Source of the DNA: Patellaria atrata CBS 101060
Lineage: Eukaryota
Assembly: GCA_010093705.1 (NCBI GenBank)
Contig: MU006090.1
Coordinates: 1,639,817 to 1,703,816 of the forward strand
DNA: 64,000 bases
Direction of reading: 5' to 3'
The notes beneath the pieces were generated by a model that saw only the letters and a program-made list of their open reading frames with translations, had not been told where the DNA came from and made no database searches. Positions 15,466-55,200 of this stretch are shown here, piece after piece; positions within the stretch are counted from its first letter, which is position 1, and each line of letters opens with the position of its first letter. A program made the translations under genes and the position numbers.

Positions 15466-15980
15466 TGTGAACTGTGTTCTATCGAAAATCAATTGGAGGA
15501 TAGTGAGGTAGGGACTAACTGTAAAATAATCCTTTCGACAAAGGTTTTGTCCGCAAAGGGACACCTTCGTGCTTTATCCATTTTTAAACCTACAGGGTAG
15601 AGATTACGTCCCAGCAAAATATTCTTTAGCGTGATGACGTGCTGCGGTAGCCGAATTACTCTATTCGGTAGTCCTTCTTCTCCTAAGAGCCAAGTATACG
15701 TCTTTTAACTCAATTTCTAACATTATATGCTTAAGATACTATCACTATGAAATGCCGAATAAAAAAGACCCTAGTGTTCATCTCAAGCATAGCAGGGGAC
15801 TGTTCGATGAACCTGGTATTGTGAGCTGCTGAGACAAAAGGAAGAGACAAAGTCCGAACCCCCTCGGAATGTATAATATAAATTATGTATTTTGACACCT
15901 AGATACCTTTCATGTGACTAGTCCTATCATCCATAGATAATAGGTACTTGGACTGTACAAGTACGTTGATAAGATCGAAC

Positions 15981-17901
15981 CTAGAAATCCTCACGGGCAC
16001 GCTTACTCCTCTTCCTGATTGAAGCGCCATAATACCATAGCACGAACGGAATCGGGATAAAGGCAATCCCAAGGAACGCCAGAAGACTACTTGCCCAGTC
16101 CACACCAAGGCGACGGTACATGGCAATAGCGAGTAGGGGAAATCCCGCACCGAACGATGAACGGAAAAGCTCATTCCCAGCGAGCACAGAAGCAGCATAC
16201 TCCGAGAATGCGTCCTGAAGATAGTGGAGGACGCCGTTGGAAAGCAGAAAAGCACCGACGGTAAAGAACCTGGAGCCGACTATAGGCATGAGCCAGTGGA
16301 TTTCCGGTCTGGCGCTCCAACTAAACCAGAAGAGACATATGGGGATGAAGAAACCACCTACGCAAGCTGGGGGAAGAACGTTTCTCAGGCTGAATTTCGC
16401 CGCGGTCGTTGATCTTGGGTTCTTGTACCTTGTATAGATAGAGAAAGAACGGAGGGATTTGTTACAAGGGCTCCAATAAGTATACCTAGAATGCTGGCCC
16501 TTGCAGCCCCAAATCGAAATGATATATCTGAATGAAGACGATGAGGAAGGACTCGAACCAGATATATAACAACCCATAAATGAGAGCAATATACAAGTTC
16601 AGTAAAAATACCACAGGCTCGGTAGGGTTCAGGGTGAATGGCCGGACGAGGGTCATAAGGGTGGTGTCTCTTCGTGTCATTTGCTCGGCCATAATTTTAG
16701 GTTCACACTTTAGTTCTCCGTTACATTTAAGCTTTCGAAGTCGGCGTGTGCGGCGATAGAGAATATTTTGTGCACTGGTTTCAGGAAGAAAGAAGAAAAT
16801 GATAACAAGACAAAAACCAGAAAGGCTTCAAACGTGTCAGCAAAATATTTCAAACGAATATGAATACACTTACCACATAGTTTCCCATATCGTCCATGTC
16901 TAGCCTTTTGCTTGTGCTGTGAAACCACCCCCTAGCGGACCCAAAACTGGCCCACATATGGCGAATAAGCCCCAGATTGATATTTCGTACGCACGCTTTG
17001 CGGGTCTGTACATATCCCTAAGTGATGTTCTACCGGTTGCGAGCACTGGGGAGCCAAAGAACCCGGTCAAGAAACGGAATGCTAAAAACATACCGAAGTT
17101 GGTGGCTAAAGCAGTTGGGACCTGAAAGACAACGAATACAACTAGCGTCCTAAAATAAATCGGGTTGCGGCCAATGTAGGGAACTTCTGATATCGGTGAC
17201 CAGAGCATCTATACATTCGTCAATTTTCATTTCCATCATTTGTGGTAGTAAAAAAAAAAATACTGACGGGTCCCACACCGTAACCAGCGACAAAAGTTGT
17301 GAGCCCTGAGAGAGCAGCCACCTCACCGACGCCGAAGACTCGCATCACATCCAGTACTCCCGCGCTGTAAATCGCAGAGCGTATGTAAACGCTTACAGTC
17401 AAGAGGCAAATTTGGAAAGTGACAAAAGACTTCTTGAATAGCGACCAATTCATAGGATTCTACGAGTGACTTCTCAGTAACAGATGATCAACAGTATCAG
17501 CATATTTCACCGAGCACCTCTGGGTCGTCTGGACCGGACCAGTAGATAATATGCACATCTTTTCCCCTTTCCAGGTCCAATCTGACAGCGCTTGTCTAAT
17601 TGTATATTGTATCACAATCGTGGGCGTAAGTCGCGGATGAAGCCACAGTATGACCTCTCGGGTCTTACCATTGAGAATCTCCATCTCGGTCACCGTTACT
17701 CTGTTTTGCAGGCTGTTCCTTTGCGTCGGAAGCCCCTTGCTGTGGTCCCACGCGGCCGTGATGCGCGACGTTGGCTAACTTCTCTGTGGACAAGCTTTCC
17801 CATATTGTCGGATCTCTTTCCTCTGCGTAATGCAGATACCTTTCACCCGTAATGAAACGAATACAATGTCCGAAGATGCTGTCTCGAATGAGTTCAGTTA
17901 T
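15981..17901 (-). pseudogene. Disrupted MFS multidrug transporter (DHA1 family, Flr1/Caf5-like)
   Basis: Motifs (M)TELIRDSIFG, WSGPDDPE|NPMNWS..KK, WSPISEVPYIGRNP, RFLTGFFGSP, YAASVLAGN..RS.FGAGFPL are spread over several frames. In-frame TAG at 16900-16902 where Trp is expected (KG*TWTIWE). Likely start ATG is now ATA. Frameshifts present. Confidence 0.85.
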
Positions 17902-20301: not shown

Positions 20302-23097
20302 GATTCCGCCTGTTCTCATTGAAGATGGTCGATGGTGCCAGTTCCCCTTGTATTCCCTTATTGAATCTCGATTGATCAAGCGATGAAGGAACGTAGAGTT
20401 ACTCGTCATAGAACTAAAGTACTCAACATGATATCGTCAAACCACCATGGAGAGGTGGTTGTTACTTCGGCTGACTCCAATCGGCCGAGTCATCGTCTGA
20501 TACTAAAGTATGGTACTTCACCATGAGCCCCCCCAAGCCGTAGCCGTTCCCTATGCTATGTATAAGCTATGCCTTAGGTGCCTGGGTGTTGGCTGGCATA
20601 CATCCCTTTATACATCTCATGTGCATTCAGTTACGCAGGCTTGATTGCATTTTCTGAGTCTGTAGCATGAGAACTAATACTCTATACTGAGCGTGAAGAA
20701 GCTCTAAATCCTGTCATCATGGATGAGAATGGTATATCGCAGCTCCAATAACATTGGGAAGCGCAAGGACATAACCTTTGACAGCGATATAGCCAAGGAT
20801 AGTCCACAAACTCCAGTTAGTCTCTACAAGCAAATAAAAGTAGGGAAATACGAAAATCTGTTAGACAATAGTGGACCTACCTGATAGGGGCTTTCTTCAT
20901 GTTATGTTAATGTAGTCCGTCAATAATGACAGACTAATATTGCAGAAAGTGAGCCCAAAAGCTCTGTACTCATTGCTTATTCACACTAAGGAGCAAATAG
21001 ACTCGGCAAGATACCTTACCGACAGTCAAAATGAGACAATATCTAGGTCCATTCGATGATTGACCAAAAAGGACCACGAGCATATATTGTATTTACCAGA
21101 AGACCAATCATTAATCCTGGTGTAAAGGCCACCGATCAGGTATTCACCGTACGTATTTTCTAGCTGTGTAGACCGTATACGATAGCTTAATCATAGATTG
21201 TGCGTTCTTCTTTTAAGCGAGACCTCCGCAACGTCGAACAGACATGATCAAAAAGAAGGAAAGAAGCGCTCCTTATGATACATTACGATCGATTCTTGCG
21301 GGTAGAAGGACGAGCATTCCAAACTTAAAGGCTAAGTTTCTGACTAAGCGAGGGACTGCATAAGAATATCTTGAAGGACGGTCCGATCCTGCAGGTGAAT
21401 CATCAATGATTCTTCAGTTAGGGTGCTAAGTACCCGGACGACATGAGTAAGCTTGGTAAGGCATGTATGCGATCCACGTTGTTGAGGCTTGAGCGAAGTT
21501 ACTCGTAAGGTAGTTCTGAAGGTCTTCTCTCTTCGATGCTCAGAAATAAGAAAACTTCACATCGGGGACTGTCCCTGCTCTGACAAGACGTTCGACGATA
21601 TTAATTCCATCTACCCCTTTCGGTAAGTGAATGCTGGACATGATTGGTGATCTCGTCGTCAAGGGACGTTAGCATGACATCGATTCCGTCAGGGTCTTCA
21701 AGATATCTTGTCGGAGAGGAGTCCTGCTCCGACAAGACGTTCGACGATTTTTACAATTAATTTCTTCTTTGGTAAATGACTACCTCTGTACGGAGTACTA
21801 CTGTACAGTATTCGACGTTACGAGGTAGCCTAGGTAGCATAGATCTCGATCTCTTGATACTGATGGTCATGGCTTCCGTCGGGGAGGAGTCCTGCTCTGT
21901 CATGACGTTCGACAATATTTCGAACAAATAACTGTTTTTGAAAGTAACTGCTAGATCTAGCGATCAGGTAGTGTTTAGTTCGATTGAGCCACAGTAAGGG
22001 TCCACGGGTTCCTGCCCTTGGGTGCAGAAGCAAGATTGATTCGGATGGATGGCACGTCACCTAAAGATACCTTGGAAGAGGTTTGACACCTCGGTCGACA
22101 CCTCGGATAACCCTAAAGGGGCTTTCTTTCGTCCTCTTTTTGAATGTCCAGTTCCCCGCCACATGGTCAATGACGATCGAAGCTGGTCGTGAAACTTAGA
22201 CGTTAAGGGATGCTCCCAATTTTTCAGTTTTGAGTTTCCATACTCTCAATTAAGGCAAGCAGCTTCCCCCGTTGTTCAAATATCAGACACCAACTTAGGA
22301 TCATGAACCATCTAGGTCTTACTGCCATCAATGAAGCCGTATTACAGTATTGAAGCCCTACATTACGAACTCAAATTTAATAAATATGGTCTTTGGATAT
22401 TGGTTCCTCCCGTCGTGTTCGCAGATCGAAGTGGCGACAATTTACCCTCTACTGTCGATCCCAGATACAGCCATCTTAGGTCCATTTGAAAAAGCCGTTG
22501 TTTTACGAGCGGAGGGAAGGTTAGACGGAGTATACAAATAGGAATCAAGGCTGGTTATGAAATTATTCTGAATCATCACAAAGTTGTTCGTATAACTTCG
22601 CTGAGCAGGATCAGACATTGAGAAAACTTACCATGTGGCGGTGATTCTGGCATTTGTCTTCCCACCATACCAACCACTCAGAGGCCGCGGAATATCACTA
22701 GCGTGTGATTTTGGTGGTTGGGTTACCGGCCATTGGCGAATTTTGGCGGCAAAATCACGAGCACTTGAGGCCCAAAAGGGCTAGCGGTATGGCGTAAACA
22801 AGCCCCTTAAGGCTGGGCAACCTGCCATCTCAGCTGTCACCTCAGTGACGCGGCTGGAACACAACACGTTAAACATAAAAGAGTGTATTCATTGCATTCA
22901 TCGTGACAACATACAATCGCAAGACATCACAATCACATCTAATCCATGAGTCTCTGATCACATCTGATTCAAACAATTAGATACCGAGTCATATTACTCT
23001 CAACTCGCGCCATCTACCAAATTCCAAATTTTTTCTAAAACAGCCCCTGAGCTCAATCCAAACAATCAACCACGGTACCATCTTATCAACCATCACA

Positions 23098-23682
23098 ATG
23101 CGCGCTTCAATCTGCATCACCGCTCTCTTCGCGTCCGCCGCCCTCTCTCAAACCTTAGTTGAACCCTCAACCGGTGCGCCTACTGACGCGCCCACCGACG
23201 CGATCCCGACACCGTCTTCAATCCCTTACACAAACCCCAACACACATTTCCTCACGATGACCGACTCGAGGGGCGTCATCACCGGGCAACCTACCCTACC
23301 CACTCTGCCCACTCTCCCCACTGCTGTAACCACGCAGCCCGTGCTAGAGACCTTCCAACCGTCGGTCATAACCTCGCAGCCGGAGGTCGCCACCATCCCG
23401 GCGGGTTTGCCGACTGGCGTTAGGACCATCCAGCTCCCGTCGAGCAGCTTTTTCGTCATCAGTGTGGGTCGCAGCTCTACTGTAGTATTCACGCCTTCGA
23501 CCTCCACATCCTCTGCTGAGGAGACTGGGACTGCTGGTGACTCCACGGCTACCGATTCCGAGGAACCAACTGGCACTGAGACCAGTGAGGGTGCTGCAAC
23601 TAGCACCGGTGCGGCTGCTGTCCTCAAGGGGGCCTCTGGTGCTGTTCTTGGTGCGGGTGCGTTTGTTGCCATGTTCTTGTAA
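23098..23682 (+). CDS. Ser/Thr/Pro-rich secreted, probably GPI-anchored cell-wall protein
   Basis: Signal peptide MRASICITALFASAALS, T/P/S-rich body, C-terminal GPI-type signal STGAAAVLKGASGAVLGAGAFVAMFL. Confidence 0.85.
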   Translation: MRASICITALFASAALSQTLVEPSTGAPTDAPTDAIPTPSSIPYTNPNTHFLTMTDSRGVITGQPTLPTLPTLPTAVTTQPVLETFQPSVITSQPEVATIPAGLPTGVRTIQLPSSSFFVISVGRSSTVVFTPSTSTSSAEETGTAGDSTATDSEEPTGTETSEGAATSTGAAAVLKGASGAVLGAGAFVAMFL

Positions 23683-24743: not shown

Positions 24744-25313
24744 TGCGTCCCGCTGGTATGAGGAAGCTCAGGAGAGTACTGTTGTAGGTTGAAGTGAGAG
24801 TCGACGGGAACGCCAGGGCAGTGGGATCAATATGTTCGGGCGAACTAGCCGTATCGGGCCCTTTTCACGATTTTTGTTGAACGTCTTGTGAATAACGTTA
24901 CTTTGACCCCTGGTAAGTAATGACTCTAAGAGTTAAAGCATCACTGTCACGGCAAACGTTTCCAAGATTTTGAATGAATGTCTCATGTAAGGGGGCGGGT
25001 GGAATAGAAGTATTGATGAGCGTTTTCAATTGCCCACAGGTACTCGAGATTTGTAGTTTAATTCTTAGTAAGGGAGATGAGAATGAGAAGCAATGTATGT
25101 GACCAAATCAGGTAATACTCCTAAAAATATAGTCGAACGCCGTGAAAGCTTGGCCAGTGTCAGAGCTTATTCCAAACCATTTCTGACGTCGTTCAACAAC
25201 CCCCCATACTCCACCAATAAGCACCTTAACCCCACTCTTTCAAATTCCTTATCAGTCATGCATAGTAAAAAGTTATAAGCTATACTTACCGGCAAGGCCC
25301 GATAATCAACACT

Positions 25314-25478
25314 GGGAAGGTGGCCGAGTGGTTATGGCGTTACGGTTTGTACTAACTTCCCTCCCCCCTACCTTTGAATTACGTATGCTAATAAGTTGTG
25401 CAGTTTAGGTTAAAGCGTTCCAGCTTAACGAACTTTCCGTAATTCGAAAGAGCGTGGGTTCGATCCCCACCCTTCTCA
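25314..25478 (+). tRNA. tRNA-Leu, anticodon TAG, with two intervening sequences (25345-25403 spliceosomal-like; 25410-25436 canonical position 37/38)
   Basis: Acceptor stem GGGAAGG/CCTTCTC+A; A box TGGCCGAGTGG; anticodon stem TTACG/CGTAA; loop TT-TAG-G..C after removing both inserts; long variable arm TTCGAAAGA; T arm GTGGG-TTCGATC-CCCAC; T7 run at 25485-25491. Confidence 0.85.
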
Positions 25479-25484
25479 TTATTC

Positions 25485-25491
25485 TTTTTTT
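25485..25491 (+). terminator. RNA polymerase III oligo-T terminator of the tRNA-Leu gene
   Basis: T7 run a few nt after the discriminator base. Confidence 0.7.
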
Positions 25492-25754
25492 GAGTTTTTA
25501 TCTTTTCCCTATTTGGTGGTGTTGTTGTTGTGATGGAGAGTTGAATTTTTGGTTGTGGAGACGAGCGTGAGGATAAGTGAGTTGGAGATATTGCAAGGAT
25601 AAGGGAGTATTATCATTTATATTTAGATTTCGAAGATTATGGTAGACAGAAGCAGCTTGTTAAGTTCTTGATCATTTTGTGGTCTGTTCTCTGAACATCT
25701 ATGGAAATACATAATTGCCGCGTACTTTTCACAATCCATACGCACAGTGCTGCT

Positions 25755-27364
25755 CTACGTACTCCCAGGACCACCCAGTAATGCGAATCTTCTCACGATG
25801 CTCGGACCAATCTCATCATATTCTGCCTTTGTGTGGCAGTAACTTCTAAATTCAGGCGTTTGGCCCAGAAGACTGCCTCCGAACCAAGGGCCGTGTCTTT
25901 GTCGTTTGTGAGTAATGACTTGCACCTCAAGACCTCCACTCTTTGCCCCACCACTGCGTGCTTCTGAGGCTCTGATCCTATCGTCTACGAGGTGACGGAT
26001 ATCTCGCTGTAATCTGCGCCCGAAGTCCTTGTATAATGTCGAACCTCCGGACAGAACAATGTTTTTGTAGAGACCGCGCCGCACGTCAATAGGGGAGGTT
26101 TGAATAACAGTATCGACAATATTCGGTAATGGGGTTAGAAAATCAGAGGAGTAAATCTCCGGGTTAAAGAAAATTTCGGGGGCCAAGAATCGTTCATATC
26201 CTACGTCAACGACGACTGACTTCCCGTTCGGGTACTTTACTGTGTGCTTGCCGAACCTTTCCGGTTCCCGGTCAAATCTCGAGAATTCCTTTACGATATC
26301 AGGACATACGTAGCAGAACTCCTCTTTGATACGTTCTGCAGTCTTCAAACTGCTATCTGGCTCTCCTCGATCTCGCAGAAGCGATTGAACGAAATAGGTG
26401 ATATCTCGACCTGCAATAGGAATACTCTTGATGGAAGAACCGATGACATAACCTTCTGCTACTGGAATAACGTGGGTCACACCTTCACCAGAATCGATGA
26501 CTGTTCCTGTTAGGGATCGGTCCTGGACCTTTGAGGAAGTCCAAGATGCGGCGAGAGCAAGGACTGCTTGCACGGCGATATATAAACCGGCGCAATTAAA
26601 AGATTCAAACATGATCTCGGCGGTATTCTCTCGGTTTTCTGGAGGATTCAGGGGCTAAATGATAGTCAGTACAAGTAAACGGAATCAAGAGACGTAACCC
26701 ATACTGGTTCTGTGAGTAGAAAGTAATGGTCTTCCGGTTCTACTCTGAGATATTTGAAGATGGAATTCGACCAGAACCGCTCCATATGATCCTAATTGCA
26801 TTGTTAGTATCCATGTGTCTTTTTCAAGAGTGCTCCTTTACCCAATTCTCTATTTGTCCGTGCCGTATAGGATAGTGAATGCCATAACCTGACCATATCA
26901 ACGTCTATTCCACGTCCATGCATTTTGCCCTATATAAACATACCGGGTCCAGCTGACGCTGCCAGAGCTTCATCCCCAATGAAGAAGTCTAGATCTTCCG
27001 TTCCGCGCTTCCCTGAAAGATGCCCGCTCGGTCCGGCTCCACCGGTAAGGAAAGAAGGTTTATTTGCGACTGCCGGCCTCCCCGACCCTGAACCTCCAGC
27101 ACCACCACCTGCGCCTTTAGTTGCAATTGCGGTAGGAAACACGAAGGAGGGAGAATCATTTCCAGCAAATCCTGTCGCGGGACATCAGCTCAGTACGTAA
27201 TTGAAGGTATTTGATATTGCCAACCTAGTTTAGAATACCCCGTGCCGCTGTAATGATATCTTGTTAGCTCTCTTCAATCACAATGTACGGGAAGCGAACT
27301 ATAAGGCCACAGAATAAATGGTCACTTACTTGTCCATGACAACGGCTGGGGTTTGAGAAGCCAT
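25755..27364 (-). CDS. ARP3: Actin-related protein 3 (Arp2/3 complex), multi-exon
   Basis: [12 protein letters not shown]..., FPTAIAT...[60 protein letters not shown]. Confidence 0.97.
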
Positions 27365-34086: not shown

Positions 34087-36317
34087 ATGCGTCCGAAAGC
34101 ATTTTTGGGCCTTTTGGCTCTGAACTCTCGCTCTCTCGTTCTCTCGTAGCTGGTCTACCTTCAATCCCTTCAACAGTCAGCTTCAGCACTAGCGTGTCAA
34201 CTGTCGCTGCTAACGCCGGTCTGGGTCTAATGTACCACTGCCGACTCCCGCTGGAGTGCTGATTCCAAATTTTGCAGCTCCAACGGTACCCGGTTTAGCT
34301 GTGCCGGCTTGGTGCCAGTTTGGTCTGGTCTACCAGCTCTCAGCTCTGAATCGTTGATTCCGCCCGTTCCTGGGTTGCCAGGTCCCGCGCTTCCTGGTTT
34401 GTCAGTTCCCGCGCTTCCTGGCTTACCAATTCCCCCTATCCCTAGTGTACCTTCTACTCCCGAAGACGCAACTATGAGCATACTTCCTGTGCCTCCCCTT
34501 CCCGGTGACTCTGGCGAGCTTCCTATCCCTGGTCTACCCGACCTACTGGTGCCTGGTCTACCAATTCCTGGCCTACCGATCCCCGATCTACCGATCCTCG
34601 GCCTGCCGATCCCTGGTCTACCAGTCCCTGAATTGCCAGGTCTTGATGGCTCACTTCCTGTTCCTACAGAGCTGAATTCTGATATTCTCACCTCCGTCCT
34701 TGGCCTCGGAGCTAAAATCTTATCGATCGTTTTAGGCATATTCTCCGCAGGCGGGCTCCCGTCCCTCGGGCTTGGTACTGGTGTCGGACCGGTAGGAGGC
34801 TTGACAAGCTCCGCTGGAGCAACTGCAAATCCAAGCCTTATTAACGGCCAGCTCGGTCTCCCAGGCATTCCATTACCCAACGGAGGCCTGGGTCTCAACC
34901 CTGCAGCATTAGGCTCTCTGCCGCTGTTAGGCAATCTTCCCCTTCCCGCTCTGAATATTCCAAAGACAGGACTTCCTTTTCCAGGTCTGGAAGATGGACT
35001 TCCAAATCTACCAATTCCTGGTCTTCCTCTCGCCGACCTAACCCCTGGGGGTGTATCAAGTCTTATTCCAAAATTCCCTCTTCCAAACCTACCCATCATT
35101 GGAGGTCTCCCCCTTCCCCTACAAATCTTCCTCTTCCAGACCTCCCTATCATCGGGAATCCTCTTGGTAGAGGGAGTCCCATTGGAGGTATCTCCTCTCT
35201 CCCAGGGCTTAGCCTGCTTTCTCCGATCACAGGTATTGCGCTCACCGTTGTTGCGTTGTTGGACTCTGGACTCGGCGGTGCTGCCGGCATAGGTTCGCTC
35301 ACCAGCAACTTGGTGCCCGTCCCGGACATACTTTCTCGCCAACTGGGTCTCGGAGCTGGCGCAGGCGCCGCGGGTGGGTTGACTGGAGGTTTGACTGGAA
35401 CCTTGGGTGGAAAACTGCCTCTTCCACTCCCCGGTGCGGGTGGTCTACCATCTCTACAGGCTCTACCACTGCCAGGCCTTGGAGGTGGTTCAGCAGGGCC
35501 GGCACTCCCGTTACCAAATCTTCCGCTACCAAATCTTCCACTTCCTAATCTTCCACTTCCTAATCCTCCTCTCCCTAATCTTCCTCTTCCTAATATTCCT
35601 CTTCCTAATCTTCCTTTTCCTAATCTTCCTCTACCCGACCTTCCTGTTCCCCTTCCGAATCTTCCAGTTCCTCTCCCGGGTAGCTCATCTCCCGGCTCAA
35701 GCAACCCCTCACTCCCCAATCTCCCGGTACCTCTTCCCAATCTCCCAGTACCCCTCCCCAACCTGTCGCTCCCGATCCCTGACATTCCAATTCCCGATCT
35801 ACCAATTCCGGACCTCCGGCTTCCCATCCCCGCGCTCGAGCAACTAGAAGTCGCGACCATCGTCTCCAGCCTTATCAACGCCCTCCCACTTCCAGCGGGC
35901 CTGGGGAACCTCATCCCGATAATCGACTCAGTACTCACGCTCGCGGTCTCCGACATCATCGCCGCCATTTCGGCCGTCTAGGAAGTCGCACTCATCCTCT
36001 CAATGTTCCAGATGCTAGGTGCCATGAACCCAGAGAAGTTCGGCGGCCTATCCGGACTCACCAGCCTCGGTGCCCTCAATTCCGCCGCTTCTGGCCTCTC
36101 GCCTGCGGATTTGACCGCTGTTTCGGGTATCTTGGCGGATACACCAGCGGCACCTGTGGGGAGCTTGATTGAGCAGCTCATTGCGATGGTGAGTATCTTT
36201 GCGAAGATGGCGCCGCTTATGGGTGATATTCCGGGCGCGTTCAGTTTGGCGGCGCTTAACAGGTTGGGCTTGCCGTTGCCTGTTGATTTGCCTTTGCCTT
36301 TACCTGTTAAGGGATAA
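34087..36317 (+). pseudogene. Disrupted gene for a secreted-type Pro/Leu/Gly-rich repetitive protein
   Basis: Signal-like start MRPKAFLGLLAL. (P)NLPL/GLPI repeats continue across a frameshift at ~35121 and an in-frame TAG at 35979-35981 (ORFs 35256 and 36003 share a frame). Further frame breaks at 34130-34310. Confidence 0.65.
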
Positions 36318-42526: not shown

Positions 42527-44951
<2,425 letters not shown>

Positions 44952-45348: not shown

Positions 45349-47971
45349 ATGTACTCACCAACCCCCAGTAGTGCGGAGATTATGCCTATTTTCTATATAG
45401 GTCAACATGAGACTAATCGTTCTCTTCCTGTATCGGACCAACTTCTCCGTCAGGCTCAGGATTTCAACGTAAAGTGATTCCCAGATTGATATTGAAAGGG
45501 AGCTAATTCCCTCTGCAGTATGATATGCTCAGCACCCCTATCACAACTTCTCAGTTTCATTCCAATGTTTTGACGCTCCTTTCGAATTACATGGCGCATA
45601 TTGAGGGGAGCGTACCTGAAGAAGAGATCCCAATGCCTCTTATTCCACCTTTAACCTCCTTAGACACGAATTTGACGCCTAACGAAACCATTTCTCAACT
45701 GATAGCTTTCACAAGTCCTTGGATTGATCTAGCTTCTCCGGATCCTGTCATAGCTAGTCTATCGAAGCAAGTTTTCAATCTGGAAATCGCTTATGCTGCC
45801 TTCTGCGGGATTGGTAATGTAATCATACAAGGACTAGCTCTTAATCATGGCGTTACACCAGGTAGCGGTATATCCCAGTACGCTAGGGTCATACAGGAAG
45901 CCCTAGGTGCTGGGCCATACCTTCACCTTCAAATTCTGATGCAGATGAGAGAGGATTCAATATCATCCAGCGCTGACACCATGGGGAGTTTGTCACAGTT
46001 TGCGAGACAGCAGTATCTCGAAAAGGCTTCACACGCATCTGCAACTGAACGTGAGGCTGATTTGTTCAGCACCTGGGATACCTGGAATGTTATTAGATCT
46101 GTGTGTAAATATTCCTCACGATTATCTATCGGTAAGATTCAAAATACATCTCACCTCTGTTTGGCACCAGGCAATTCTCAACCCTAATCAATGAAGGAAT
46201 TATGCGCCATAGTTTCCCTCTCTTAACCGTCAATTTCTTGGAGAACTGTGATTGCTGACTTGTCTAATATCAGCTTTATTGTTACCAAAGCAGCTTCCGC
46301 CAATGCCACTCCAGTCAAGGTGGTTTTCGGAGCCTTTGAAGGAGTTGATATTTCCCGAAACTTCTTTTCTGAAGAATGCAAAAGGTTATCCCGTACTTTC
46401 GAAGTCTCACCAAGCTTTGATCTCGCGATATATGCGTCTTCGAAATTCTCCCTGGCTGCTGCTCAGTGATGTTGGGCAGATCCCTGGGGTAGATGAGCAA
46501 ACGAAGATTTTCAGTAGCCCCAGAGATAACTCACCAGGACTGAACGCCTCAAGGGGGAGTATGTCCTCGTCTCCTACTCCTGCTGAGGCTGCACAGCAAG
46601 ACGCAGGATCACGAAGAAGAATAAAAGACCCCACTCCTCATCTGAGTTATATGAGACATCTCCAGGCAAATCAGCCGCCGAAGTCTGCAATTGAACGTTT
46701 CGGGGCCGGATATCAGGATTATCTTCAAGCTCCCCTCCAGCCCCTGACGGACAATCTGGAAAGCATAACTTATGAAGTCTTCGAGAAAGATCCTGTGAAA
46801 TATGACTGGTACGAGATGGCAATCTGTAACGCACTAAACGACTGGATGGCGCTAGGTAGATCTACCTCTTCTTCAACTGGAGCTGTAGTCATTGCTGTGG
46901 TGGGCGCTGGCCGTGGACCTTTGGTCACCCGTGCGCTTCGCGCTGCGGAAAAGAGTGGAGTCTTGGTGGATGTATATGCAGTTGAAAAGAACCCAAATGC
47001 TTATGTTCTTCTCCAACGCCATAACCATGAGGATTGGAATATGGCTGTCACGGTGATCAAATCAGACATGAGGTTCTGGAAAGGGCCATTACAGCCTGAC
47101 GGCTCCCATGGACGTGTCGACATTCTTGTATCAGAGCTTCTAGGCTCTTTTGCGGATAACGAACTTTCCCCGGAGTGTCTTGACGGAGTTCAACATGTCT
47201 TAAATCCACTACATGGCATCTCTATACCGTCTTCATACACGGCGCACATGACTCCAATCGCGGCTCCGCGTCTTCATGCTGATTGTCTCGGCCGTAGCTT
47301 TTCCGATCCTACAGTTTTCGAAACACCTTACGTTGTGATGTTACATGCACTCGACTTCCTATCCACTATTCAACCACATTCTGATTCTTCAGCAAAGCAA
47401 GAGTTGATACCGCTTCTACCAGATGTGAAAACCGCTTGGGCTTTTAGCCATCCAATCCCTCCCGGCATCATTCTACAGTCAAATCTTCGCCGTGGTGGAG
47501 GTGTTAATGGTGGAGGGGGAGGAAATATGGGCGGCGACGGCGCGAACGAACATAATGTGAGGTATAGTCGCCTAAATTTCCATTGCCCTAATCGAGGAGT
47601 CTGCCATGGGATTGCAGGATACTTTGAGACTGTGTTATATCGCGGACCTTCAGGAACGGTTGAGTTAAGCACCAACCCGGTGACCATGGAGTCTAAAAGC
47701 AAAGATATGATAAGCTGGTTTCCAATCTTCTTTCCTCTCAAGGTTAGTCTTAGTTCTTACTTATTCAACTTTCTCTAACGAGCGATAAATGCAGACTCCC
47801 GTCTATATTCCTGATAATTCTGAACTAGAGATTAGCATGTGGCGTCAGACTGACGACAGGAAAGTGTGGTATGAATGGCTTGTAGAGGTTTTCATGGTCG
47901 ATGCTCATCGAAGGATACGACTCGGTGTGTCTGATATTCATTCAAGCAAGAAAAACGGCTGCCTTATGTAA
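45349..47971 (+). CDS. PRMT5: Type II protein arginine methyltransferase PRMT5 (Skb1/Hsl7), multi-exon
   Basis: YQDYLQAPLQPLTDNLES.TYEVFEKDPVKY, VVGAGRGPLV, VEKNPNA, VSELLGSFADNELSPECLDG, MISWFPIFFPL, KVWYEW. Confidence 0.95.
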
Positions 47972-52286: not shown

Positions 52287-55200
52287 ATGTGCGCGGCACT
52301 CATGACGATCCCAGCGATCCAGCCCTTGCACGTCAGGCTCACTTTGCAAGCTCGGCATCAACCTTCATGGAACGACATCCCTACCAGACGGTGCTGGACG
52401 GTAGATGTTCTCGAAGGGAACGAGAAGGTAACGGAAGACTTGCAGCTTTCGGATCCTTTGAGTAAGGAGGAAGCGGCGACGTGCCGTTGGTATCTGGAAC
52501 AATATGTCCAGAGTTCCCCTTTCTCCATTTCTCAAGCTCGTGCCGCTGAAGCATTATTGAAGGGGTATCCGAAGAACATAATCAACCAACTGAATCTTAG
52601 AGAGATACTACAGTCACGAGCACCCTCTATCAATGGTCAGCCTACAGTTCTTTCACTGCTCATCAAAGAATCGATCAACAGCCCAGATGCCACTGTGCAT
52701 CAGCTTCATTGGGAAGCCCTCGAAGATCCAGAATGTTGGAATAACCCCAACCTTCGAGTCGAGGTCAAACGCGCCGCCCTCAACAAAGAGATACTCCAGA
52801 AGCCCTTAGCAAGGGTCAAAACCCGCCAGGATGAGCAAGGCGCTACCGGGACACTCAATATTCTTCTAGTTGTTGCGCGAGACACTTCTCACAATCCGGC
52901 TATTTATAGCGACGTAAATCCATTTCTTGTCTCCGATATCCTTTCACAGATACGAAAGAATCTCCGACAATCTGAACATGCCGTACGAATGAATGTAGAA
53001 ATTGTACGACCAGGGAGTTTAAAAAGTTTGGAAGAGCATCTTCAACGTGCTGAAGCTATTCACGGAACCAACTATTTCCACATCATCCATTTTGACCTCC
53101 ACGGTAAAGTAGGTCTGAGAAAGAAAGGTCCTACACGTGTCAAAAATGCTTTCCTTTATTTTTGCGATCCGCATTCTAACGCCACTAGAGCTGAAAGTGC
53201 CACCAAAGTTGGTAAGATCCTAAAAAGGCACTCCGTCCCATTGGTAGTTCTCAATGCATGCGAGTCTGCTAGGGCTAATTGTGGGGATGACGCAAACATT
53301 GCAAAGATCTTCGAACAGGAGGGTGTTCAAAAGGTTCTAGCAATGTCATTCAAGATTTCAAGTAGCGCAGCCAATTTATTTCTCTCCAAATTTTATAATG
53401 AGTTTCTCATAACCGGAACTTCATTTTCCAGAGCTGCGGCGGAGGCACGTAGCTTTCTTCGAACCTTCTCTATTAGACAAGCTCGTTTCGGGTTGGAGCT
53501 ACCCCTGAAAGATTGGTTTGTGCCGGTGATATACGGTTCTGACCACGACGTGGTGATACGCCAGGAGAAAACGCCAGGAGAAGATTCAGTGGACAGAGGG
53601 ATTGACAAACCTTTCGTTAGTACGGCTAAGCCCGATCTGTCAACGGATTCTACCCCTGTTGGACGTGAATTCGACATCTTGAGGATCGAGAAGTTGCTAT
53701 GTCAAAATCACACCCTTTATTTGCATGGGCCTCCAGGATCCGGAAAATCAGCCCTCATACGATACCTTGCCTCTGTCTGGAAGGAGACTTCCTTCGTAGA
53801 TGGATACGTCTACGTGGATTTCAAGAATATTAAGATCACTCAAGCAAATGACTTTATCGAAAATATTGCTAGCCAGCTAGTTGCTAGATTCCTGGCTTCC
53901 AACATGAATCTCTGGACGGTGAATACACTATCGGTTCAGTCTTACGACCACGAGTCCTTAAAGGACATTATCAAAAGTATCGTCAAAGAATATCGTGTTG
54001 CCATGATCTTTGATAACATTCAAGTATCCCACTCGAATATAGTCCCGATGTCTCTCGATGATGTATTGCTTACTGAAATCAATAATTTCTTGAGTCCCTT
54101 CTTAGATTCACCAGGTAGCAACCTGTCTGCCAATATAACGACTACCAAACCATTCGTCCTCTTCATAGGCCGCCGTTCGGATGTGCAGTGGATCTCGAAC
54201 ATAATTGGTTATGACTTTTTGAATCAACACTACAAAATCTCTGGACTAGAACTTCCAGATGCCATTGAATTAGCTCAATCAACTCTACGAGACGCAGGGG
54301 AGAACCTAGACGAGTGGCAACATGAAGATTTTAACACGCTTGAACTTGTTCTTGAGCTCCTTCAGAGAATACCTGACGCGATTCTCCAAGTCCTTCCCAT
54401 GGCTAGACGGTTGCGGATTCCGTGGCGTGAATTCCATCACCGCGTTCATACCCAGCTTATCTCATCAACGGAGGCCAGACGGGTGGTTGATGAGAACAAT
54501 GATTTCCACAAGGAATTCCGCAACTATGAAGAAATCTTACCCCATGTGATTTTCCCGTATTTTCTGCTTCTCGGCTTCTTTTGGCGCGAGGGTCCAATTG
54601 CAGCATCGCTAGTCGATGCTGTGATATCAATCGCAGAAAATATTGGTACTGATAGCGCAACCGAAGACCAAGTTAGAGAGGCTATTGAGACTGTCATCCG
54701 AGCCGCCATGCTATTCGCTCGTGACCGGGGGCTACTGGAGTATGACAACTCAGGAAGAATCAATTGGATACATCCATTATTTACCCTATACTCTAAAGGG
54801 CCACGGCTTGCACAATCCGACGAGGAATGTCCAGAAGACCATAAGAGGGATCAGTCTATCGCAGAGAAAGAAGTGGTCGAAGATGATTCCCCAACAAATT
54901 TTCAATCCATGAGCATAGCGTCAATTCTTCCTATTATTAAAACTATCGAAGAAAGGGCATATCTCCAATTCATGGTCAATGTCTACACTGGTAGTGACTA
55001 TAGTCAACTCCGTATTGACTATTCCGCTGCATTCCCGAACCTACTTACATGCATAAAGCATTGCATAGTTGCAGATGATATTATATCATTAAATGACTGG
55101 CCTATGACTCTTTTCACGCTTTTCGCCCCCCACATAAGGCTAGTAGGCACCACCACGGACTGCATACTTTTTGCAGACGCATATGAGCAACTACTGTCAG

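Follow-up and report, generated by a model that had tools for sequence, protein, structure and literature searches.

Structure of the tRNA-Leu(UAG) locus

The window analysed here is a stretch of 64,000 nt of Patellaria atrata CBS 101060 (assembly GCA_010093705.1, contig MU006090.1, positions 1,639,817-1,703,816 of the forward strand), and the positions given below refer to this window. Direct reading and ARAGORN identify a type II tRNA-Leu(UAG) gene on its plus strand (25314-25478), with an A box, a B box, A73 and a T7 terminator. The gene is flanked by an ARP3-like gene (actin family) and a PSF1-like gene (GINS/Sld5 family), according to Pfam. Its cloverleaf forms only after removal of two stretches, one of 59 nt between tRNA positions 31 and 32 (insert 1) and one of 27 nt between positions 37 and 38 (insert 2). 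A preliminary description of this DNA had given coordinates and strings for the gene and for both inserts; direct reading and the ARAGORN constructs described below found all of them exact (Table 1).

Table 1. Features of the tRNA-Leu(UAG) gene, its two inserts and its 3' flank
Feature	Position	Strand	Basis or remark
5' exon, tRNA positions 1-31	25314-25344	+	direct reading; ARAGORN cloverleaf without inserts
A box TGGCCGAGTGG	25321-25331	+	direct reading
Insert 1, spliceosomal-type intron, 59 nt, position 31/32	25345-25403	+	splice signals, tRNA fold, relative's contig
Donor GTTTGT	25345-25350	+	insert 1
TACTAAC	25350-25356	+	insert 1; too near the 5' splice site for branch use
C/T-rich tract	25357-25375	+	insert 1
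Intronic segment complementary to 25438-25448	25373-25383	+	inverted repeat, 91%
Branch site TGCTAAT, branch A 25391	25386-25392	+	insert 1; branch A 12 nt before the insert end
Acceptor CAG	25401-25403	+	insert 1
Middle piece TTTAGG, positions 32-37: U33, anticodon TAG (25406-25408), G37	25404-25409	+	direct reading; ARAGORN
Insert 2, canonical tRNA intron, 27 nt, position 37/38	25410-25436	+	ARAGORN -i; relative's contig
3' exon, 42 nt, positions 38-73	25437-25478	+	direct reading; ARAGORN
Variable arm, 11 nt	25443-25453	+	direct reading
B box GGTTCGATCCC	25457-25467	+	direct reading
T7 run, Pol III terminator-like, 6 nt past the gene	25485-25491	+	direct reading

The 31-nt 5' exon supplies the acceptor strand GGGAAGG, U8, a D arm with a GCC/GGC stem, G26 and the anticodon-stem strand TTACG. 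The 3' exon begins with C38 and CGTAA and continues through the variable arm and the T arm (GTGGG/TTCGATC/CCCAC) to the acceptor strand CCTTCTC and A73. We take TGGCCGAGTGG and GGTTCGATCCC to be the A and B boxes on the box consensus; they lie about 125 bp apart, which is above the usual spacing. The longest T run within the gene is three, so that neither insert holds a T4, as had been claimed before, and the transcript is presumably made by Pol III. An overlapping mRNA as the owner of the GT-AG ends was considered and dropped, the plus-strand ORFs at 25187-25408 and 25409-25570 not being coding-like.

Detection of the gene by tRNA finders

We ran ARAGORN on four constructs, intact or edited. 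Without the intron option, the program called one of the four, the construct that lacks both inserts, as Leu(tag). With the option -i, the program called Leu(tag) once insert 1 alone had been taken out, and placed a 27-nt intron at the canonical site. For the intact sequence it proposed Thr(tgt), an implausible call that involves an 84-nt intron and displaces a stem by one base; with insert 2 alone taken out, the call was Ser(tga). We consider the Thr(tgt) and Ser(tga) calls as artefacts, because ARAGORN -i forces one single intron. In this comparison before and after in silico removal, which the preliminary description had proposed and for which we used ARAGORN, Leu(tag) was recovered only without insert 1.

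At default settings, ARAGORN found no gene across the 64-kb window, and Rfam gave no match in the window at the gathering score. In E-value mode, the score of RF00005 was 18.3 bits, below its cut-off of 29, and the match was limited to the T-arm side. Together with the Thr(tgt) call, these results bear out the expectation that the gene would be missed or mis-called by standard finders. At a low threshold, ARAGORN made calls at 15961-16050 and 34880-35047, which are mismatched false positives; therefore there is no second tRNA in the window.

Insert 1 carries the signals of a spliceosomal intron

The boundaries of insert 1 leave no free choice, because they are set by the tRNA fold; its ends are ambiguous by 1 nt, since G25344 and G25403 are the same base. 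To obtain a chance count, we took every 59-mer on either strand of the window, 127,884 in all. GT..AG ends are present in 480 of these, 45 of which also have a CTRAY motif 8-30 nt from the end, and GTNNGT..YAG is present in 12. The complete signal set is found in only two (about 1.6e-5 per 59-mer), namely insert 1 and a likely mRNA intron of the minus strand (44567-44625). Past the branch site of insert 1, the first YAG is the CAG that ends the insert and the following one is the anticodon TAG itself. Under the usual "first YAG" rule, and by our own reading of the sequence, the correct junction would therefore be chosen.

We then compared insert 1 with the introns of the two flanking genes, six in all, as read from the reading frames. 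These measure 53, 55, 50, 50, 68 and 69 nt; they have GTNNGN-type donors and end in a CAG or TAG acceptor, with a YTRAY branch at a distance of 9-19 nt from the end. Two of the six (26792-26841 and 26889-26943) are corroborated by their absence from relatives' contigs. With its 59 nt, insert 1 falls in the middle of this range (50-69 nt). It has the donor, the CTRAY branch, the YAG and the local intron size of a U2-type GT-AG intron. The earlier claim that insert 1 shares the architecture and length of the neighbouring mRNA introns is confirmed by the two hits among 127,884 59-mers and by these six introns.

The first intron of PSF1 also has a C-rich tract in the style of that of insert 1. Other GTTTGT candidates in the window (45988-46069 and 53516-53564) are ambiguous as introns.

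The GUUUGU donor is weak, having U at both +3 and +4. Moreover, G25345 can pair with C25437, giving a 6-bp anticodon stem that reaches over the 5' splice site. We consider it highly probable that an intron sequence of the spliceosomal type sits within this otherwise perfect tRNA gene.

Relatives, origin and copy number

Contigs of two relatives, X20 and X24, align with the window over the 3' part of the gene only. The X20 contig aligns from 25432 on; upstream of this point it reads TTACG followed directly by TTTAGG. After TTTAGG comes an intron body which is unrelated to insert 2, the last five intron bases being common to both. The X24 contig covers 25432-25478 with a single differing letter in 47 nt. 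From the TTACG-TTTAGG junction of X20 we infer that insert 1 was gained later, exactly to the base, and that its excision would restore the ancestral tRNA. On this comparison, the ancestral state is a Leu(UAG) gene with the 37/38 intron only. Insert 2 has the features of a canonical SEN-type intron: it lies at the 37/38 site, it is short and its body differs between species. Its description as an ordinary 37/38 tRNA intron agrees with both the ARAGORN -i call and the X20 intron at the same site.

A repeat search of the 64-kb window found no second copy of insert 1 or of insert 2. The best other match to insert 1 in the window is the first PSF1 intron (18 nt, 89%, E = 2.4); we rejected homology between the two and judged the match to be a resemblance of branch site and C tract. 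Insert 1 is flanked by neither terminal inverted nor direct repeats. A metagenome scan for the 5' exon followed by a purine, with a pattern too loose in the D loop, found no orthologue carrying the insert: its 27 matches include no tRNA gene and are all due to chance in high-GC sequence. The one relative contig that spans the 31/32 site, X20, is without the insert.

The k-mer contigs of runs X1 (30,729 nt) and X2 (6,964 nt) continue unbroken through the 42-nt 3' exon, those of X2 breaking elsewhere in the stretch. An identical second copy of this exon is unlikely, because we would expect contigs to break there, and the tRNA-Leu(UAG) gene may thus be single-copy, a weak inference from expected contig behaviour. 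X1 and X2 are two DNA runs of one sample, and their contigs show no difference across the gene; they do not count as independent support, because this sample is possibly the window's own source.

Folding of the precursor and access of SEN

We overlaid the geometry of a bulge-helix-bulge (BHB; 3-nt bulges at the cut sites, a 4-bp central helix and flanking helices) on both junctions of insert 1. No BHB is formed at the ends of the insert. Pairing is possible at 2/4 positions of the central helix, 2/4 of the outer helix (all G-U) and 1/4 of the inner helix; a slide of 1 nt gives 3/4, 2/4 and 4/4, respectively, almost all of them G-U or A-U. The ends of insert 1 are not brought together in the MFE or the centroid fold, and the stability of the precursor equals that of shuffled sequences (z = -0.07 and 0.09).

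Fungal SEN locates its cut sites by a ruler distance from the tRNA body. On the intact RNA, this ruler would cut after 25350, which is 6 nt into insert 1, and at 25436/25437. The product would have the loop GUUUGUC, which would close on itself through a G32-C38 pair. SEN alone would yield no sensible tRNA and therefore insert 1 would have to go before SEN acts.

The complementary intronic segment (Table 1) forms an 11-bp helix with 25438-25448, that is, with the 3' strand of the anticodon stem and the start of the variable arm. This helix contains one G-U pair and is present in both the MFE and the centroid folds. Its duplex energy is matched by 48 of 2000 dinucleotide shuffles, which makes it only mildly unusual. 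As modelled, the helix could compete with the true anticodon stem. More speculatively, it could be a trace of the origin of insert 1, or it could hold the donor single-stranded and keep the SEN substrate unformed until the spliceosome acts.

A possible maturation by the spliceosome, then SEN

We propose the following pathway, all steps of which are putative. The ancestor would have been a nuclear tRNA-Leu(UAG) gene with the 37/38 intron alone, in a genome of the filamentous-fungus kind. A 59-nt GT-AG intron of U2 type would later have been gained, base-exact, between positions 31 and 32, most likely via intron transposition, for instance by reverse splicing into a nuclear, intron-bearing pre-tRNA followed by copying to DNA. 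The intact A and B boxes of the present gene would direct its transcription through to the T7 run, there being no T4 inside the inserts. The nuclear spliceosome would pair with GUUUGU, branch at A25391 in UGCUAAU and join G31 to U32. Normal geometry of the anticodon arm would thereby be restored, SEN would measure and excise the 27-nt intron, and tRNA ligase would seal the halves. The order would be forced, because the SEN ruler would cut 6 nt inside insert 1 if the latter were still present, giving an aberrant loop. That a tRNA is really made in this way, by the spliceosome and then SEN, is a serious possibility which we place just short of probable.

Splicing of insert 1 is favoured because removal of both inserts leaves a complete, canonical tRNA, and because the A box, the B box, A73, U33, G37 and T7 are intact with no T4 in between. 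It is also favoured by the intact GTNNGT, CTRAY and YAG, in a length and layout that match the six flanking introns, by the absence of a BHB at the ends of the insert and by the near identity of the compared exon to X24 (1/47 nt differing). In addition, fungi splice the U6 RNA made by Pol III, at least as summarised in PMC5855946. On the other side, the case for splicing is weakened by the weak GUUUGU donor and the G25345-C25437 pairing over the 5' splice site, by the outcome of the metagenome scan (no insert-bearing orthologue, 0/27 matches being tRNA genes) and because a recent insertion in a redundant gene would appear identical. Pol III transcripts are reportedly left unspliced in mammalian cells, which also counts against splicing.

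This evidence has to be weighed against a dead or dying gene copy, in which a 59-nt intron-like insertion gives a transcript that is no substrate for the spliceosome and yields no functional tRNA. The insertion could then stem from intron transposition, from an introner-like element or from filler DNA at a repaired break; CUA would be read by other Leu tRNAs (through IAG wobble or other UAG copies), and the exons would be intact only because the event is recent. We consider such a loss of function plausible without being the expected outcome, and about as likely as maturation by two machines. The weak donor fits with it, as does its possible burial in a 6-bp stem, and the 11-bp helix between intron and exon would cause the tRNA body to misfold. 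Reviewing passages usually read non-canonical inserts in eukaryotic tRNA genes, when they lie in one of several synonymous genes, as marks of a pseudogene (PMC4090602), and spliceosomal introns are presented as Pol II features, with no tRNA case named in the available part of the text (PMC12530127). Against a dead copy, no tRNA invariant is lost, the two promoter boxes, the terminator and the three splice signals are intact, and the 3' exon region has kept all but one of the 47 nt compared with X24. The contigs unbroken through the 42-nt exon weakly suggest, from the way contigs are expected to behave, that there is no identical second copy, and the splicing of Pol III-made U6 shows that fungi have the capacity to process such transcripts (PMC5855946, in part).

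The remaining explanations are clearly less probable. Insert 1 could be a non-canonical tRNA intron removed by SEN, in the style of Cyanidioschyzon, nucleomorphs or archaea, its GT-AG ends being incidental. Non-canonical or multiple introns, some of them in the anticodon stem-loop, are indeed spliced in some eukaryotes, according to the relevant passages of PMC4090602. The 1-nt shift also allows a weak, mostly G-U helix here (central 3/4, inner 4/4), but no proper BHB results (outer 2/4, all G-U; central 2-3/4) and none appears in the MFE or centroid folds. Removal by SEN would moreover leave the full spliceosomal signal set, at about 1.6e-5 per 59-mer, unexplained, and the fungal ruler would cut after 25350 and not at 25344/25345; we therefore judge it improbable. 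Still more improbable is one long SEN intron that recodes the anticodon on a Leu body, with a loop taken from the start of insert 1. The outcome would be either Thr(UGU) with an 84-nt intron (25352-25435), as called by ARAGORN -i on the intact sequence, or the ruler loop GUUUGUC with anticodon UUG. A change of anticodon through a change of intron boundary has reportedly been proposed for the yeast CUG-clade tRNA, which counts for recoding. However, the ARAGORN call works only with a displaced stem and with two bases separating the D stem from the anticodon stem, and in the ruler version G-C pairing of 32 with 38 reduces the loop to 5 nt. The supposed intron would also contain the ancestral TTTAGG loop, undamaged and with its own intron, and A35 and G37, which are Leu identity bases, would be lost. 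Finally, a chimeric join in the assembly, or another sequencing artefact, might have put intron-like DNA in the tRNA gene. The sequence is indeed found in one organism's runs, possibly the assembly's own source, but contigs of two runs, with word depths of 318 and 435, span the gene with no difference, no alternative contig exists at the junctions and the insert ends are base-exact relative to the tRNA. We give an artefact hardly any credence.

Overall, the interpretation given in the preliminary description is partly supported: its claims on the sequence hold, and the functional maturation is a hypothesis. If the transcript is spliced as proposed, this would tentatively be the first known tRNA whose maturation depends on two unrelated splicing machines, acting in a fixed order (the spliceosome at 31/32 and then the endonuclease and ligase at 37/38); we regard this as a real possibility rather than as probable.

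Significance

In textbooks and in the recent literature, the intron types of eukaryotes are treated separately: spliceosomal introns are assigned to Pol II transcripts, U6 being the exceptional Pol III case, and introns cut by an endonuclease to tRNAs (PMC12530127, in the part available). If insert 1 is spliced, the novelty would be a spliceosomal intron in a tRNA that also has a SEN intron, spliceosomal introns in non-mRNA genes being already known. An ordinary Pol III tRNA precursor would then lie within reach of the spliceosome, and intron transposition would be able to reach any abundant nuclear RNA. The gene would also offer a natural substrate with which to study the order of the two pathways across nucleus and cytoplasm. 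There could then be a hidden class of spliceosomal introns in tRNA genes, discarded by tRNA finders. Annotations may silently lose such genes, and "missing" isoacceptors of fungi and algae should therefore be searched again with models that allow a GT-AG insert. Even if the gene is dead, it would still be a clean, datable case of a spliceosomal-type intron entering a non-mRNA gene, which bears on the origin of introns.

Comparison with known systems

Among open-licence PMC papers and bioRxiv preprints we found no description of a spliceosomal intron in a tRNA gene; subscription journals may hold one. The tL(UAG) genes of S. cerevisiae have a short 37/38 intron. Like an ordinary nuclear tRNA-Leu(UAG) gene, the gene described here is of type II, with UAG, G37, A73, a 37/38 intron, A and B boxes and a T run; it differs by the additional 59-nt insert at 31/32. 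Fungal introner-like elements and algal introners are recent and precise gains of spliceosomal introns that occur as families of many near-identical copies. In the 64-kb window, insert 1 has no second copy.

Two interruptions of a tRNA gene, at 37/38 and at another site of the anticodon arm, are known from Cyanidioschyzon merolae, from the nucleomorphs of cryptophytes and chlorarachniophytes and from archaea, and those genes are likewise missed by standard finders, according to the passages of PMC4090602 on which we draw. The introns concerned are recognised through a BHB or are very short (3-24 nt in Guillardia), and they are cut by the endonuclease (PMC4090602). In contrast, insert 1 has no BHB but has a GT, a branch site and an AG.

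Closer parallels are offered by fungal non-coding RNA genes. Spliceosomal introns occur in U1, U2 and U5 (Takahashi 1993/1996) and in ascomycete rRNA (Bhattacharya 2000), as cited by PMC5855946, and fungal U3 genes bear them as well (PMC5832005, in part). These are, as in our case, small introns of spliceosomal type in fungal non-coding genes, some of which are not transcribed by Pol II, and in these summaries they are recognised via the three signals that insert 1 carries. The host RNA and the polymerases are different.

The nearest case is U6. In S. pombe, the Pol III-made U6 snRNA is freed of a spliceosomal intron, and such introns are predicted in many fungal U6 genes (Tani & Ohshima 1989/1991; Canzler 2016; as summarised in PMC5855946). 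Splicing has been demonstrated for the S. pombe intron, according to the same summary, and is a proposal for insert 1. In both settings a short GT-AG intron with a branch site lies in the gene of a small, structured, non-coding Pol III RNA. The U6 introns are summarised there as lineage-specific gains with only their signals conserved and with reverse splicing suspected, to which insert 1 may be likened. Unlike U6, however, the host here is a tRNA and no component of the spliceosome; closeness to the catalytic centre can therefore not explain the insertion. The tRNA-Leu(UAG) gene differs from U6 also by its SEN-type intron, so that two systems would act on a single precursor of 165 nt.

Pairing and motifs in and around insert 1

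An inverted-repeat search revealed an 11-nt repeat (91%) linking insert 1, the 59-nt GT-AG insert of the tRNA-Leu(UAG) gene, to the 3' strand of the anticodon stem and the first bases of the variable arm. Fold prediction for the tRNA precursor with both inserts in place gives this pairing as the dominant helix, and its duplex energy was reached in 48 of 2000 shuffles.

Insert 1 also contains a perfect branch-site consensus, TACTAAC, only 5 nt past its donor GT, which is unable to serve this insert because it lies too near the donor. The motif plus the C-rich tract next to it on the 3' side resembles the 3' part of intron 1 of the PSF1-like gene, though the match (18 nt, 89%, E = 2.4) is not significant. 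Upstream of the tRNA gene, a TATAA motif located about 36-40 nt 5' of tRNA position 1 may act as a promoter element.

Coordinates of the features analyzed in the window
Feature	Position	Strand	Description
Helix arm	25373-25383		Within insert 1
Helix arm	25438-25448		Anticodon stem 3' strand and start of variable arm
TACTAAC	25350-25356
PSF1 intron 1 segment	24655-24672	minus	Resembles part of insert 1, not significant
TATAA	25274-25278
tRNA-Leu(cag) candidate	15961-16050	minus	ARAGORN, low threshold
tRNA-Thr(ggt) candidate	34880-35047	minus	ARAGORN, low threshold
Open frame	22981-23682	plus	233 codons
ARP3-like predicted intron	26792-26841	minus	50 nt
ARP3-like predicted intron	26889-26943	minus	55 nt

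Other features of the window

Two further tRNA candidates were called by ARAGORN at a lowered threshold only; both cloverleaves carry several mismatches and are likely false positives. The open frame starts with a signal-peptide-like segment, continues through a long middle rich in Ser/Thr/Pro and has a hydrophobic end. The predicted product resembles a GPI-anchored cell-wall or mucin-like protein.

Comparison with contigs from X20 and X24, two sequencing runs of relatives, showed that they omit exactly both predicted introns of the ARP3-like gene. This omission corroborates their prediction as introns, and suggests that the runs represent either RNA or relatives lacking both.
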